Positions 3,697 to 42,578 of a stretch of 64,000 bases of DNA are shown here, piece by piece. Below the pieces are notes generated by a model. The model did no database searches, was not told the origin of the DNA, and worked only from the letters and a program-made list of their open reading frames with translations. Location: assembly GCF_003334255.1 (NCBI RefSeq), contig NZ_QOWU01000010.1. One strand, written 5' to 3'. Numbering within the stretch: the stretch's first letter is position 1; the number at the start of each line of letters is the position of its first letter. The stretch is from Escherichia coli (GTDB taxonomy: Bacteria > Pseudomonadota > Gammaproteobacteria > Enterobacterales > Enterobacteriaceae). Position numbers and translations under genes: made by a program.

Positions 3697-4737
3697 ATGA
3701 GCGACAACATCCGTGTTGGGTTGATTGGGTATGGTTATGCGAGCAAAACCTTCCATGCGCCCCTGATTGCGGGCACGCCCGGGCTGGAACTGGCGGTAAT
3801 CTCCAGCAGTGATGAAACAAAAGTAAAAGCCGACTGGCCAACGGTTACGGTTGTCTCTGAGCCGAAGCATCTGTTTAACGATCCCAACATAGACCTGATT
3901 GTCATTCCTACACCCAACGATACCCATTTCCCGTTAGCCAAAGCGGCGCTTGAGGCGGGTAAACATGTGGTCGTTGATAAACCCTTTACCGTGACACTGT
4001 CACAAGCGCGAGAGCTGGATGCGCTGGCAAAAAGCCTGGGGCGTGTGCTGTCTGTATTCCATAACCGTCGCTGGGATAGCGATTTCTTGACGCTAAAAGG
4101 TTTACTCGCGGAAGGCGTGCTGGGTGAAGTTGCTTACTTTGAGTCTCATTTTGACCGCTTCCGTCCGCAGGTGCGCGATCGTTGGCGTGAACAGGGCGGC
4201 CCAGGCAGCGGTATCTGGTACGATTTAGCACCACATCTTCTTGATCAGGCCATTACGCTTTTTGGTTTACCGGTCAGCATGACGGTAGATTTGGCACAGT
4301 TACGGCCCGGAGCGCAGTCGACCGATTATTTCCACGCCATCTTGTCCTATCCACAGCGGCGAGTCATTTTACACGGTACCATGCTGGCAGCCGCTGAGTC
4401 AGCACGGTATATCGTGCATGGATCCCTAGGCAGTTATGTGAAATATGGCCTCGATCCACAGGAAGAACGTCTGAAAAATGGCGAGCGTCTACCGCAGGAA
4501 GACTGGGGCTACGATATGCGTGATGGCGTACTTACCCGCGTGGAAGGTGAGGAACGTGTCGAAGAAACGCTGTTGACGGTGCCTGGGAATTATCCGGCTT
4601 ACTATGCGGCTATTCGTGATGCGTTAAATGGCGATGGTGAAAATCCGGTTCCGGCAAGCCAGGCAATCCAGGTAATGGAGTTGATTGAGCTGGGCATCGA
4701 ATCCGCCAAACATCGCGCGACTTTGTGCCTTGCATGA
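3697..4737 (+). CDS. ydgJ: YdgJ, Gfo/Idh/MocA-family NAD(P)-dependent oxidoreductase (346 aa)
   Basis: Start at ATG 3697 (MSDNIRVGLIGYGYASKTFHAPLIAG..., Rossmann GxGxxG near N-terminus); ORF track start 3658 is probably an upstream in-frame extension. Confidence 0.88.
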   Translation: MSDNIRVGLIGYGYASKTFHAPLIAGTPGLELAVISSSDETKVKADWPTVTVVSEPKHLFNDPNIDLIVIPTPNDTHFPLAKAALEAGKHVVVDKPFTVTLSQARELDALAKSLGRVLSVFHNRRWDSDFLTLKGLLAEGVLGEVAYFESHFDRFRPQVRDRWREQGGPGSGIWYDLAPHLLDQAITLFGLPVSMTVDLAQLRPGAQSTDYFHAILSYPQRRVILHGTMLAAAESARYIVHGSLGSYVKYGLDPQEERLKNGERLPQEDWGYDMRDGVLTRVEGEERVEETLLTVPGNYPAYYAAIRDALNGDGENPVPASQAIQVMELIELGIESAKHRATLCLA

Positions 4738-4770
4738 AAAATGGATGGTGCATTTGCACCATCCATTTTG

Positions 4771-5772
4771 TTACTTCGCGGCGACTTTTTCTCGCAGTGC
4801 GCGTTTTTCCTCAGCGCTGAGGAAAGCCATTTCCAGACCATTAATCTGTGCCTGGCGGATTTGCTCGCGGGATAACCCAGCAGCTGGCGCGGCAACGGTA
4901 TATTCGTGAATGATATCCACTCCCTGTACGCCGGGATCGTCAGTGTTAATGCTGGCACGAATGCCATGCTCAAGGAACGTTTTCAGCGGATGTGCAGCCA
5001 GCTCTGCTACGGTGCTGGTCTGAATATTGGAGGTCAGACAGGATTCAATACCAATTTGTTGCTCGGCGAGAAAATCCATCAGCGCCCGATCTTCAATGGC
5101 TTTTACGCCATGTCCAATACGCTCCGCACCCAGTTCACGAATCGCCTGCCAGATGCTTTCCGGCCCGGCAGCTTCGCCTGCATGGACGGTAATATGCCAG
5201 CCCGCATCACGCGCGCGGTTGAAGTGAGAAAGGAACAGACTTCCCGGGAAACCAAGTTCATCACCGGCTAAATCAAGTGCGGTAATCTGGTCACGGTGGG
5301 CTAAAAAGGCCTCCAGCTCTTGCTGACAGGCGGCTTCGCCGAAGGTCCGGCTCATAATGCCGATAAGCTTCGCCTGCACACCAAAGGTGCGGCAACCTTC
5401 ACGTACGCCATCGATCACCGCTTCGACAACACCCGCTACAGGCAGCTGATGTGCCATTGCCATGTAGCCTGGTGAAAAACGCAGCTCGACATAGTGCAGG
5501 CCGTGACGGGCTGCATCTTCAATGTTTTCAAATGCCACGCGGCGACAGGCATCAAGAGAGGCGAGAACTTTAACGCCCCAGTCAAGTTTGGTCAGAAAGC
5601 TCACCAGATCGGGTTCGTTGGCAATGACCTGAACGTGGGGAATCAGTGTTTCCAGGGATTGTGCAGGAAGCGAGATATTATACTGGCGGCCAAGTTCAAG
5701 AATGGTCTGGGGACGAATGTTGCCATCAAGGTGGCGATGGATATCAGTTAATGGCAGGGTGGTATCAATCAT
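4771..5772 (-). CDS. add: Adenosine deaminase (333 aa)
   Basis: 333-aa [31 protein letters not shown]... with the HxHLDG metal-binding motif characteristic of adenosine deaminase. Confidence 0.95.
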
Positions 5773-37442: not shown

Positions 37443-37742
37443 ATGAGAACGTATTTATCTGGCTTTACTGCCAGCGGTTATGCACACCCCAAAATTATCC
37501 CCGGCGCTATTTATCTGGATAAGAACGGTAACAGAGTAACGGTAAAAGAACTGATGTTTGACCGTGTGTATTTTATTCGTGATGGCTATTCATTTCATAG
37601 TTCGCTGAACGTGGAGATCTTTATTAGCAGATTCCGGCGGGAAATCCCGCTTTCCAGAAATAACCATGTGTCATGTATGGATGTTGATAAAAAACTACAG
37701 GAACTGAAAAACATGATTGCCGCGTGGAGAGAGCAGAAATGA
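37443..37742 (+). CDS. Hypothetical protein (99 aa)
   Basis: ORF directly upstream of and overlapping the primase gene start; no recognisable motif. Confidence 0.5.
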   Translation: MRTYLSGFTASGYAHPKIIPGAIYLDKNGNRVTVKELMFDRVYFIRDGYSFHSSLNVEIFISRFRREIPLSRNNHVSCMDVDKKLQELKNMIAAWREQK

Positions 37743-39556: not shown

Positions 39557-39569
39557 ACTTATGGAATAA

Positions 39570-39792
39570 CTGTTCACCACTGTTCACCCTGTCATAAATA
39601 TCTTTTGTATCAGTATGTTATAGGGTGAACAGTTATTTATGAACTGTTCACCAAACTATTCACTGTTCACCTTTTTGATTGTTTATTGAGCTTCAAGGGT
39701 GAACAGTGGTGAATAGTTGGTGAATAGTTTTTGTGAAACTGTTCACCCCTTAACATTATGAATTAAAAGATAAAATATCAAAAGGTGAACAG
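39570..39792. repeat. Iteron array (at least 8 copies of CTGTTCACC / GGTGAACAG in both orientations): candidate island replication origin
   Basis: Copies at 39570, 39580, 39624(inv), 39644, 39663, 39698(inv), 39739, 39784(inv) plus GGTGAATAG variants at 39708 and 39718, in AT-rich DNA just after the primase gene. Confidence 0.65.
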
Positions 39793-39843
39793 GTGAAGGG
39801 TTAAAACGCAAAAATTTTAATTTACTGCTGTGAGATAAAGCCT

Positions 39844-40089
39844 ATGACAGCGAAGCACACAAAAAAATCACAATCGCACGCCCTTGATTTGACGGAACAC
39901 TGGTTAAGGGTGTCGATAAAAATCATCGACCGCAACGCCGGGGAAGGATATGCGAAAGCACATCCCGAACTGATTAGCTCATTCATGACAACGGCAGCTG
40001 CAAACTTTGCCACGCTGACAGAACGGGAGATTGCCGAAGCGGAACAGGTGACAACCATCAACGTTAAAACCGGAGAGCAGACAGCATGA
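39844..40089 (+). CDS. Hypothetical protein (81 aa)
   Basis: ORF immediately upstream of and overlapping the ssb start (ATGA overlap); weak RBS. Confidence 0.4.
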   Translation: MTAKHTKKSQSHALDLTEHWLRVSIKIIDRNAGEGYAKAHPELISSFMTTAAANFATLTEREIAEAEQVTTINVKTGEQTA

Positions 40090-40496
40090 CAGCACAGATA
40101 GCAGCTTACGGGCGGCTGGTGGACGACCCGCAGGTAAAACAGACCAGTAAGGGCACACCGATGACGCTGGCGCGTATGGCGGTATCGTTGCCATGTAGTC
40201 AGGCGCAGGATGGGCAGGCGACGTTATGGCTATCGGTCATCGCATTTGGTAAGCAGGCCGACTTCCTGGCTAAACATCAAAAAGGCGACGTTGCCAGCGT
40301 ATCCGGCACGATGCAGGTCAGCCAGTGGACCGGACAGAACGGGGAAACGCGGCAGGGTTATCAGGTTATTGCAGACAGCGTAATCAGTGCCCGTGCGGCA
40401 CGTCCTGGCGGGAACAGACGCAAAACCACAGGCACACAGGGTAATCAGCCACCAGCGGGAGGCGATGACCCTTACGGTGACGGTATTCCGTTCTGA
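40086..40496 (+). CDS. ssb: Single-stranded DNA-binding protein (136 aa)
   Basis: OB-fold-like N-terminal region, Gly/Pro/Gln-rich linker and acidic C-terminal tail ...DDPYGDGIPF, the hallmark SSB protein-interaction tail. Confidence 0.75.
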   Translation: MTAQIAAYGRLVDDPQVKQTSKGTPMTLARMAVSLPCSQAQDGQATLWLSVIAFGKQADFLAKHQKGDVASVSGTMQVSQWTGQNGETRQGYQVIADSVISARAARPGGNRRKTTGTQGNQPPAGGDDPYGDGIPF

Positions 40497-40506
40497 GGGG
40501 GTGGCG

Positions 40507-40779
40507 ATGGTACATGACCGCATAGCGGAAGAACTCGAGGCGAAAGGCTTTTACCGGAGGGCGGCGGCGCGATGGGGTGAAGTCATGCTGCTGGTGGAGA
40601 CAGACAAGGAACGGCATCAGGTTACGATGCGACGGCTGGAATGTTCCAGGAAGGCACAGAAGCCACCGGAGCCGCCGGATAACTTCGGAGACCTGAGAAA
40701 GGCAGTAGATCGCACTTATGCTGAAATGGGTATAGATGGTGTAAGCGATGAAATATGGCGTAATTACCCAGACAGCTAA
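40507..40779 (+). CDS. PerC-family-like small transcriptional activator (90 aa)
   Basis: MVHDRIAEELEAKGFYRRAAARWGEVM... resembles the conserved PerC motif (LEAxGxxRRAAxRW) as I remember it; GAGGGGG RBS. Confidence 0.5.
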   Translation: MVHDRIAEELEAKGFYRRAAARWGEVMLLVETDKERHQVTMRRLECSRKAQKPPEPPDNFGDLRKAVDRTYAEMGIDGVSDEIWRNYPDS

Positions 40780-40784
40780 TCAAC

Positions 40785-40808
40785 AGCCGGAGAAATCCGG
40801 CTTTTTTT
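40785..40808 (+). terminator. Intrinsic terminator
   Basis: AGCCGGAGAAATCCGGCT followed by TTTTTTT. Confidence 0.65.
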
Positions 40809-40903
40809 GCACCAGTTGAAACGGTATGGCGCATTACCGGGTTTTCGTCACGGTCAGGCATAGTTACTATCTGAAACAAACAGACACAACAGAGGAAAAA
40901 ACA

Positions 40904-41128
40904 ATGCCGATGAAATTTGATGAGATATTAAAACAGCGTGATAAATACCATGCTGACAACATGGAGACGATGAGCATCAATGATTACCGCGCATTCCTGG
41001 AGACGGGCGCACTGATTGAAAAGGATCAGCATGGTTTTGTGAGATGTGCTCTGTCCGGTGAAATGCTGGCGGTAAATCCTGAACAGATAGATGCATTGAT
41101 AGAATTTCTGAAAGGGATCAGGGACTGA
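40904..41128 (+). CDS. Hypothetical protein (74 aa)
   Basis: Start at internal Met with GAGGAAAAAACA-ATG RBS; followed by a terminator almost identical to the one at 40785. Confidence 0.45.
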   Translation: MPMKFDEILKQRDKYHADNMETMSINDYRAFLETGALIEKDQHGFVRCALSGEMLAVNPEQIDALIEFLKGIRD

Positions 41129-41138
41129 GCACGCATAC

Positions 41139-41160
41139 AGCCGGAGCAATCCGGCTTTTT
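41139..41160 (+). terminator. Intrinsic terminator (near-duplicate of 40785-40808)
   Basis: AGCCGGAGCAATCCGGCT followed by TTTTT. Confidence 0.65.
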
Positions 41161-41420
41161 GTCATTTTTTGTAAATTATTTGTTCGTGGTTGTTCCACGT
41201 TGTTCACTGACAGGATCGGCATATTTTACCCGAACTGAATCATGAGTATTCTCGCCCGTGGTGCCAGGACGCTGGGGCCACTTTCCCGCCTGTTAATGTG
41301 CTCGCCAATATTCATTACCAGGCGGGAAAACGATCGGTGCGATTGCTGATTTCCTTATGAAAAACGGTTGAGTTTTTGCCGCGTCCTGGAGTTCCTTACT
41401 TAACCCCAGGACTTTTTTTT

Positions 41421-42578
41421 ATGCCGAGAATAATCGAATTACGCCAGCAGAAAACCGCCATTAAAAATCAGATGCGCGACATGCTGGAGAACGCGGAAAA
41501 AGAAAACCGCAGCCTTAACGATGCAGAGGGCGCAAAATTTGACGAATTACGCGCTAAAGCTGAATCCCTCGATAAAGACATTTCCCGCCTTGAAGCCATT
41601 GCAGACGAAGAGCGCAGCAAGCCAGGTAAAAGCAGCCAGACCACTGACCCGGCAGAACTCCGCAACTACATCCTGACAGGTGAAACCCGCGCATTAAGTA
41701 CAGGCGTTCCCGCTGATGGTGGTTATACCGTTATCCCCGAACTGAACACCGAAATCATGCGAATGCTGACGGATGAATCCACCATGCGCCGCATCTGTAC
41801 CGTGAAGAAAATCAGCAGCAACGAGTTTAAGCAGCTTGTTTCCGCTGGCGGTGCGACCGTTAACCACGGTGAAGAGGGTAAGACACGCGAACAGACCAGC
41901 ACCCCGCAGATTAACGAGGTGAGCATTAAGCTGTATCCGGTCTATGCGTACCCGCGCACCACACAGGAAATCGTGGATTTTTCCGATGTGGACATCCTTT
42001 CATGGCTGACGGGTGAGATTGGCGACACCTTCACGGAAACCGAAGAAAGCGATCTGGTTGTGGGCGACGGTGACAAAAAAGCAAAAGGTTTTTTATCCGT
42101 ACCCCGTGCAGAGAAGAACGACAAAGAGCGTGATTTTGGTACGTTGCAGGTAATTAAACCTTCCGAATCTCTGGCGTGGACATCTGCGGACCCGCTGATC
42201 GACCTGAAATTTGCATTACGTAAAAAATACCGCAAAAACGCGGTCTGGGTGGTTAACTCCACGACGGCGGCAAAACTTCAGAAGGTGAAGAACGCGAACG
42301 GTGATTACATCTGGCGCGACCGTTTACAGGCGGGTGATCCTGATACGTTGCTGGGCCTTCCGGTCGAATATCTGGAGTTTATGCCTGATAACGTTATTGC
42401 CCTGGGTGACTTCAAACGCGGTTACTACATTGTTGATCACGAAACAGGTGTTCGCACCAGACCGGACAACCTCACAGAGCCGGGCTTCATCAAAATTTTC
42501 ACGCAGAAATATTTAGGCGGTGGCGTGGTGGATTCGAACGCGATCAAGATTCTGGAACTGCCACAGGACGACGATTAA
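41421..42578 (+). CDS. Major capsid protein, HK97 fold, with N-terminal coiled-coil scaffolding (delta) domain (385 aa from ATG 41421)
   Basis: N-terminal coiled-coil region (IELRQQKTAIKNQMRDMLENAEKENRSLNDAEGAKFDELRAKAESLDKDISRLEAIADEE) followed by a region typical of HK97-family capsid proteins; ORF track start 41376 is a TTG extension; strong terminator follows. Confidence 0.85.
   Translation: MPRIIELRQQKTAIKNQMRDMLENAEKENRSLNDAEGAKFDELRAKAESLDKDISRLEAIADEERSKPGKSSQTTDPAELRNYILTGETRALSTGVPADGGYTVIPELNTEIMRMLTDESTMRRICTVKKISSNEFKQLVSAGGATVNHGEEGKTREQTSTPQINEVSIKLYPVYAYPRTTQEIVDFSDVDILSWLTGEIGDTFTETEESDLVVGDGDKKAKGFLSVPRAEKNDKERDFGTLQVIKPSESLAWTSADPLIDLKFALRKKYRKNAVWVVNSTTAAKLQKVKNANGDYIWRDRLQAGDPDTLLGLPVEYLEFMPDNVIALGDFKRGYYIVDHETGVRTRPDNLTEPGFIKIFTQKYLGGGVVDSNAIKILELPQDDD

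Follow-up and report, generated by a model that had tools for sequence, protein, structure and literature searches.

Lambdoid phages reportedly carry 'linker' sequences at their module boundaries, together with a pervasive mosaicism, as is said to have been described by Juhala and colleagues in 2000 and by Clark and colleagues in 2001. Phage-inducible chromosomal islands of the capsid-forming kind (cf-PICIs) are a recently recognised class of phage satellites, assembled from phage-inducible chromosomal island (PICI) and phage parts. In T4-type phages, promoter-early stem-loop (PeSL) cassettes flank small ORFans, bound indels between relatives and form mini-circles (Arbiol et al. 2010, PMC2839356; Comeau et al. 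2014, PMC4122927). Those cassettes are the closest described system to the subject of this paper, a short terminator-like hairpin that occurs twice, as T1 and T2, in a satellite island within 64,000 nucleotides (nt) of Escherichia coli DNA (contig NZ_QOWU01000010.1 of assembly GCF_003334255.1; the whole stretch is 'the window' below). This island is nearly a twin of the prototype cf-PICI, EcCIEDL933 (Alqurainy et al., bioRxiv 10.1101/2022.09.08.507074), which has the same hairpin pair 354 nt apart. T1 and T2 probably both descend from a single Rho-independent terminator hairpin, one that is the standard module boundary in a family of E. coli PICIs.

How does this locus compare with what is already described? 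As with PeSL, repeated terminator stem-loop motifs flank a small non-essential open reading frame (ORF), indels or replacements between close relatives are bounded by the motif, and the mechanism put forward is that neighbouring copies recombine. However, the PeSL motif includes a strong sigma-70 promoter, is present in many copies per phage genome and belongs to lytic phages, whereas here the repeat is of 24 nt with no consensus promoter beside the hairpin, there are one or two copies per island, and the element is a satellite. The lambdoid linkers share with it that short conserved gene-boundary sequences coincide with transitions between exchanged modules, but here the boundary is a defined terminator hairpin, and the partners are satellite packaging modules, the HK97-type one of cf-PICIs and a lambda-like one that, from its gene content, we take to be of the O157 OI-51 / EcCICFT073 kind of classical PICI. 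(The correspondence of OI-51 and EcCICFT073 is stated in the PICI literature.) Ordinary Rho-independent terminators also have a GC-rich stem of 7 base pairs (bp), a stable GNRA tetraloop, a 3′ U-tract and a position just past a stop codon; the difference is that here two adjacent genes, and non-homologous gene ends across an island family, reuse one sequence.

The hairpin pair

The features of the pair and its surroundings are as follows, the frame given for the 354-bp unit being arbitrary inside the 24-nt repeat.

40507-40779, + strand: perC-family regulator gene, 90 amino acids, last gene of the orf81-ssb-perC block (RefSeq annotation of the corresponding region of E. coli G1/2)
40783-40808, + strand: T1, repeat copy 1 (repeat finder, terminator scan, shuffles, RNA fold)
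40785-40791 and 40796-40802, + strand: T1 stem, AGCCGGA and TCCGGCT, with the loop GAAA at 40792-40795
40807-41160, + strand: optional unit of 354 bp, comprising T1 tail, 97-nt spacer, orf74 and T2 hairpin
40904-41128, + strand: orf74, 74 amino acids, cargo of the unit (PHROG 1957)
41137-41170, + strand: T2, repeat copy 2 (repeat finder, terminator scan, shuffles, RNA fold)
41139-41145 and 41150-41156, + strand: T2 stem, with the loop GCAA at 41146-41149
41421-42578, + strand: HK97-type major capsid gene, first gene of the packaging module past T2 (annotation, ORF list)

The repeat is a direct one reading ACAGCCGGAG[A/C]AATCCGGCTTTTT on the + strand, with copies at 40783-40806 and 41137-41160 that agree at 23 of 24 positions and start 354 nt apart. 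A preliminary description had pointed to two near-identical hairpins at this distance behind consecutive small genes, and that is what is there: T1 begins 6 nt past the stop codon of perC and T2 11 nt past that of orf74, both on the coding strand. According to the repeat finder the identity takes in 2 nt 5′ of the stem as well as the T-run, and ends at 24 nt, the flanks not being alike. Even with up to 3 mismatches allowed, T1 and T2 are the sole copies in the whole window, and the chance expectation is 0, no match having been found in 100 dinucleotide-preserving shuffles.

The one difference between the copies is a loop base, and a GNRA tetraloop is kept in both (GAAA in T1, GCAA in T2). Each stem is of 7 bp, 5 of them G-C pairs, with a loop of 4 nt, and each hairpin was among the best + strand candidates of a generic terminator scan. 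On RNA folding the hairpin is both the minimum free energy and the centroid structure, at -13.2 kcal/mol for T1 and -14.4 kcal/mol for T2, with z of -3.5 and -3.2 respectively (about -3.3). The U-tract of T1 is 7 T in a row (40802-40808). At T2 the T-run of 41156-41160 is followed by GTCATTTTTT and the tail reads TTTT-G-TCA-TTTTTT, the tract being TTTTT, G and then TCATTTTTT (interrupted tract TTTTTGTCATTTTTT). GC-rich stem-loop, 3′ U-tract and gene-end position in gene orientation, the features of a Rho-independent terminator, are present at both, and in about 100 related loci too the hairpin is just after a gene end and oriented with the gene. Rfam, searched across the island at a permissive threshold, had no RNA family at T1 or T2. 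Rare natural variants of the hairpin exist in four loci of IMG/VR (L120, L087, L060, L122), namely TCCGG to TACGG and GGCT to GGAT in T1, an insertion in T2 (CCGGTCTTTTT) and loss of the T2 T-tract; none has a compensatory change.

Presence and absence of the 354-bp unit

In an O157:H16 island (L002) the perC stop codon runs straight into one hairpin, and that into the capsid leader. The unit is exactly absent, and the single hairpin is a hybrid, with the left flank and GAAA loop of T1 and the tail of T2. Against a unit-bearing island from strain CAU16175 (L158) the left 3,807 nt have 4 mismatches and the right 3,313 nt have 5, which makes 9 single-nucleotide differences in 7.1 kb in addition to the 354-bp indel, and the alignment blocks overlap by exactly the 24-nt repeat. 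Such a pair is the signature of a unit recently lost or gained through recombination, either from one repeat to the other or at the repeats. A further sequence, H95, has the flank haplotype of L002 at 100%, but its span is 655 nt, which is 301 + 354.

A scan of IMG/VR for the hairpin gave 104 loci, whose flanks were classified, and 70 unique sequences after removal of duplicates. Where a locus has two copies their spacing is always 354-355 nt. Among the unique sequences the HK97-type islands divide into 16 with the unit and 16 without, and the OI-51-type islands into 16 and 22. Of 5426 complete E. coli genomes, 539 have the orf74 unit; what comes next after orf74 is the HK97-type leader in 216 and the OI-51-type leader in 360. 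Junctions from perC to the HK97 leader were sampled from the complete genomes at even spacing, and of the 35 full-length matches 21 had a single hairpin and 14 the extra 354 nt. The single-hairpin islands have A or C as the loop base, in both cases with the T2 tail. Neighbour-joining trees of either flank have unit-bearing and unit-less islands intermixed, and the left and right trees disagree. Gain or loss of the unit is recurrent; the view that unit-less islands are one clade with a single origin is contradicted by the intermixed flank trees and by the near-identical L002 and L158. Whether the original event was a deletion or an insertion was also sought in the loop base of the single-hairpin alleles, and this was given up as both models predict the same products.

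Is it a gene together with its terminator that was duplicated? BLASTP gave no alignment between perC and orf74. Since these genes are unrelated and the repeat stops at 24 nt, the duplication covers the terminator alone. The earlier suggestion of gene-plus-terminator units acquired or duplicated is supported in so far as the unit of orf74 and T2 comes and goes, and wrong as to duplication of a gene; cassette behaviour is shown for that one unit only. The further expectation, that aligned relatives would show modular variation at this position, was borne out, many lacking the unit cleanly with one hybrid hairpin left.

The hairpin as a junction between modules

In the IMG/VR loci five left flanks end in the hairpin: three perC alleles, orf74 and a homologue of orf81. 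The three perC alleles have unrelated 3′ ends (...RNYPDS, ...LSKLAE and ...RNYPQK), and the hairpin is invariant behind all of them. Four right flanks start at it, these being the orf74 spacer, the HK97 capsid leader, the leader of the lambda-like capsid/decoration/TerS module, and a fourth type. Of the 20 possible combinations of left with right, 12 were seen. Across these joins the stem is invariant, and the loop position shows all four bases. When the window is compared with a classical PICI that has the lambda-like module (L003), the two are identical through the T2 stem and the first Ts and then have no similarity. The cassette-like organisation that had been suggested for the region is seen, then, in a unit that is present or absent in two island types and in a hairpin that is the homology breakpoint to another packaging module.

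The same comparison has a step in identity at T1, for which the divergence yardstick is a gene of the shared left arm:

40086-40496, + strand: ssb (RefSeq annotation of G1/2, PHROGs)

Over 40077-40496, which is ssb with the last 9 nt of orf81, identity to L003 is 92.9%, and in the 703 nt left of T1 there are 51 differences (92.7% identity). From the T1 tail to the orf74 stop there are 4 differences in 322 nt (98.8%; Fisher p = 1.8e-5 for left versus unit), only 1 of which is in the 97-nt non-coding spacer. The last difference on the left is at 40781 and the next at 40895. Compared pair by pair, 30 unique unit-bearing sequences have mean identities of 91.5% in ssb, 96.0% in perC and 98.6% in the unit, and the unit is more than 4 points above perC in 138 of 435 pairs, the reverse being so in none. 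The unit, to judge from these differences, would be younger than its left flank and would move between island types.

The hairpin beyond these islands

A scan of species-representative genomes gave 5 matches to the hairpin, all in unrelated Firmicutes, Bacteroidales and Fibrobacter. The identical 18-nt hairpin with T-run is in genomes of Erysipelotrichaceae, Enterococcus, Fibrobacter, Bacteroidales and Clostridia (L153-L157), and in IMG/VR it is a gene-end hairpin in unrelated low-GC phage contigs (L004, L011, L065 and L094; L024, L091 and L092). The hairpin would seem to be a simple, recurrently evolved terminator and not a general enterobacterial repeat. In L004, L011, L065 and L094 one common upstream gene end is joined via the hairpin to three different downstream sequences, and L092 has the hairpin twice, each time with the same 14-nt motif upstream. 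It may be general for terminators to be reused where mosaics are joined.

Two divergent cf-PICIs, L149 and L150, have a different hairpin and T-run at the position of T2, directly before a conserved block that is described below. Because of this, the conserved feature appears to be a terminator between orf74 and the control block, and not its sequence.

Mechanism and alternative explanations

In vivo, T1 would end the orf81-ssb-perC transcript, and T2 would end that of orf74 and so insulate the capsid and packaging operon from upstream read-through. With 24-nt direct repeats 354 bp apart, the unit can be lost by repeat-mediated deletion; replication slippage or a homologous crossover between the repeats would leave one hybrid hairpin. 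Short direct repeats of such size and spacing reportedly delete readily, in part independently of RecA, work on this being attributed to Albertini and colleagues in 1982 and to Bzymek and Lovett in 2001. The unit may be regained or replaced by exchange with co-resident islands. A genome has up to 6 matching island places, and many genomes have several such islands, so exchange partners are at hand. Being common to otherwise dissimilar islands, the hairpin would be the joint for module exchange, with left arms meeting different right arms. A bolder version, for the present a tentative one that we would not favour, is that the hairpin is an active linker, crossovers within its 22-24 nt swapping whole packaging modules and cargo between classical PICIs and cf-PICIs and releasing orf74 as 354-bp mini-circles while the island replicates, and that orf74, though dispensable, could modulate expression of the packaging operon or exploitation of the helper. 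If true, it would explain why cf-PICIs have int-alpA-rep arms identical to those of classical PICIs, and the mini-circles would make it the satellite counterpart of the PeSL system of T4.

Several considerations weigh against descent from one terminator that became a module boundary. A homology boundary at the hairpin is no proof of crossover there, as flanking exchanges could preserve an old junction. An efficient T1 would leave expression of orf74 unexplained, and divergent cf-PICIs have perC followed by the orf74 homologue with no T1. The consensus scan gave no promoter for orf74 or for the capsid operon, and the U-tract of T2 is broken (UUUUUGUCAUUUUUU). In the IMG/VR loci the stem is invariant, with variants that are rare single disruptions, and there being no compensatory variation the structure is unsupported by covariation. 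Selection could account for part of the unit's lower divergence, although its 97-nt non-coding spacer is equally conserved. The IMG/VR and RefSeq samples are phylogenetically non-independent. Finally, the same 23-nt hairpin is found in unrelated genomes and can arise by convergence, which makes identity alone weaker evidence of descent; this caveat does not weaken the case for two adjacent copies that demonstrably recombine.

Could the hairpins instead be ordinary terminators that happen to stand at old junctions? The orf74 indel and the module swaps would then go back to one or a few illegitimate events, spread afterwards by homologous recombination in the long flanking genes (ssb and perC to the left, and to the right the packaging genes or the flanks of the attachment site), the repeat having no special role. 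The shared left arm does offer homology much longer than the 24 nt, boundaries of homology are passed on by descent, the disagreement of left and right flank trees shows that flanks recombine, and short GC-rich GNRA hairpins of this exact sequence do arise independently elsewhere. Yet, nucleotide for nucleotide, the indel ends where the repeat does, and what the deletion leaves is a T1/T2 hybrid; single hairpins with A or C in the loop and the T2 tail imply different crossover points or several events; it is at one and the same hairpin that five unrelated left and four right flanks begin or end their homology; and the step in identity at T1 is sharp. Such a passive role is the main rival, and we regard it as unlikely. 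That T1 and T2 would owe their likeness to convergence or chance, as independent terminators, can be given next to no credence: the same hairpin has evolved in unrelated bacteria, but here the 23 of 24 identity runs 2 nt past the stem and through the T-run, just two copies, adjacent to each other, exist in 64 kb where none is expected, and the hybrid single-hairpin alleles show the copies behaving as recombining repeats.

Two further explanations give the hairpin another function altogether. The palindrome AGCCGGA-N4-TCCGGCT might be a DNA operator, bound by a dimeric regulator of the island or of its helper (PerC or AlpA, for instance) and conserved for binding, not for termination. Exact conservation of both arms in about 100 loci with no compensatory change would suit an operator, as would its place, with a regulator gene beside it and the control block of the capsid operon downstream. 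A T-run nevertheless always follows, on the coding strand only and always just past a stop codon; divergent cf-PICIs have a different hairpin and T-run at the same place; the identical gene-end hairpin is in unrelated low-GC genomes without these regulators; and a free loop base fits a GNRA tetraloop. An operator is accordingly very improbable. The layout hairpin-gene-hairpin, with an ORF followed by a hairpin-forming repeat and clean loss of the unit, also has a superficial likeness to an integron cassette array, and the island encodes a tyrosine integrase, for which the hairpin would be an attC-type site in site-specific recombination. However, the hairpin is of 18 nt as against about 57-141 nt for attC and lacks extrahelical bases and core sites, the window island is without attC architecture or annotated IntI or array, its sole recombinase is its own integrase 5 kb off at the island end with no IntI/Pc-type arrangement annotated, and the slot holds only one cassette type. 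This is hardly credible, and the mechanism is most likely general recombination or slippage. The preferred reading, of one terminator copied by descent, is the one kept in what follows.

The host island

The region is 100% identical to a chromosomal island in E. coli G1/2, within tqsA, between pntB and mdtJ. From the left its genes are an integrase, a small helix-turn-helix regulator, an Icd-like gene, a DUF4222 gene, a primase and an iteron field; then orf81 (81 amino acids), ssb, perC, T1, orf74, T2 and a 260-nt leader; and then, from the capsid gene start at 41421, 260 nt past T2, the HK97-type capsid, protease, portal, head closure, connectors, HNH, TerS and TerL. An int gene, an alpA-type regulator, primase/rep and an iteron origin followed by capsid-to-TerL genes are what EcCIEDL933-type cf-PICIs have, as is a size of about 15 kb without tail or lysis genes, judged from the G1/2 and EDL933 annotation. 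The window island has these features too and is on its genes a cf-PICI, because its PerC, orf74 and capsid proteins are identical to those of EcCIEDL933 and it has the same T1/T2 pair; gene order is the same also. It differs in that EcCIEDL933 is inserted between roxA and phoQ, and in its primase allele. Helper-phage induction and production of tail-less capsids are experimentally known for EcCIEDL933 only. PerC, whose protein is identical in the two islands, falls in PHROG 994 and in transcriptional-activator PHROGs, and perC is described as a common accessory gene in the PICI literature. That literature, where it was searched, does not mention the terminators, orf74 or the junction.

Some observations concern the left part of the island. 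Between the end of the primase gene (39556) and orf81 (39844), an iteron field at 39568-39803 contains CTGTTCACC / GGTGAACAG at least 11 times, in either orientation, so that long imperfect palindromes arise; it is probably where replication of the island starts. The field accounts for the only Rfam matches in the island, two sub-threshold ones to microRNA precursors at 39632-39739, at the origin palindrome. The DUF4222 gene (37443-37742, 99 amino acids, just upstream of the primase gene) would, going by its size and position, be the gene of RgdR, a 99-amino-acid OI-51 regulator of type III secretion (Flockhart et al., PMC3378721). Over the perC stop, T1 and the spacer (40748-40863), RefSeq/PGAP has in many genomes a pseudogene, 'trigger factor, frameshifted', and elsewhere a 42-amino-acid 'hypothetical protein'. 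The trigger factor call has a terminator inside its span and looks spurious.

orf74 and the capsid leader

What is the cargo? orf74 has no Pfam domain, no PADLOC defence model and no PDB sequence match. A confident AlphaFold2 model (predicted local distance difference test score, pLDDT, of 90.6) is built of three helices, a small sheet of three strands and a helix at the C-terminus; Foldseek gave nothing significant for it in the PDB, and in the AlphaFold database it matches nothing but uncharacterised prophage proteins of Enterobacterales, those of strains ED1a and 042 among them. A word-indexed protein search found close relatives only, an exhaustive one about 20 clusters, and for the orf74 unit there was no match at blastn sensitivity in 50,697 phage records. 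It was considered whether orf74 is RgdR, which is ruled out by length (99 versus 74 amino acids). In the many natural islands without the unit orf74 is dispensable. Its homologues are just upstream of the capsid operon in 3 of 3 divergent cf-PICIs inspected (L149, L150, L151); in L149 and L150 the homologue, 43% identical and in the same slot, adjoins perC directly with no T1 between. In L151, a divergent cf-PICI in a Logan assembly, two reverse-strand genes for products of 169 and 246 amino acids, neither with a Pfam match, stand at 4296-5602 between the orf74 homologue and the capsid control block, so the same inter-module gap takes larger accessory cargo too.

The block that follows T2 is

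41166-41205, + strand: conserved block TTTTGTAAATTATTTGTTCGTGGTTGTTCCACGTTGTTC, with TTGTTC at 41180, 41190 and 41200, in exact 10-bp phase

These approximately 40 nt (TTTTGTAAATTATTTGTTCGTGGTTGTTCCA.GTTGTTC) are almost invariant in the divergent L149 (3513-3552) and L150, whose surroundings are poorly conserved, and are partly kept in L151 (5635-5680). The block looks like the phylogenetic footprint of a candidate regulator-binding site, and is a probable control region, for the capsid operon. A consensus scan found no + strand sigma-70 promoter between 40000 and 41450, for which reason we infer that the promoter of the capsid operon is activator-dependent. The TTGTTC repeats are like the origin iterons (CTGTTCACC), and a link between them was considered; but islands whose replication proteins and iterons are different conserve the block as well, and the likeness is taken as coincidence.

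Further along the capsid leader a 17-nt inverted repeat at 41282-41329 (TTTCCCGCCTGTTAATG / CATTACCAGGCGGGAAA) folds as RNA at -28.2 kcal/mol (z -3.1). Right before the capsid ATG (41421), a hairpin GTCCTGG...CCAGGAC with T8 occupies 41383-41420 (free energy change -14.1), and the only Shine-Dalgarno-like AGGA lies inside it. This hairpin could attenuate transcription or mask the ribosome-binding site. Antitermination like that at lambda pR'-tR' was considered for it and set aside, the hairpin being absent in the divergent L149 and L150.

Implications

The case is a new example of a known thing, intrinsic terminators reused as recombination joints, and is tidy and not surprising modular evolution. 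What it adds is that the join of a shared PICI left arm with two alternative packaging modules can be placed at one hairpin, to the nucleotide. It is also at this hairpin that a small cargo gene comes and goes, which gives a testable handle on module shuffling in satellites and on the exchange of modules between cf-PICIs and classical PICIs, and orf74 and the block after T2 become candidates for control of the capsid operon.

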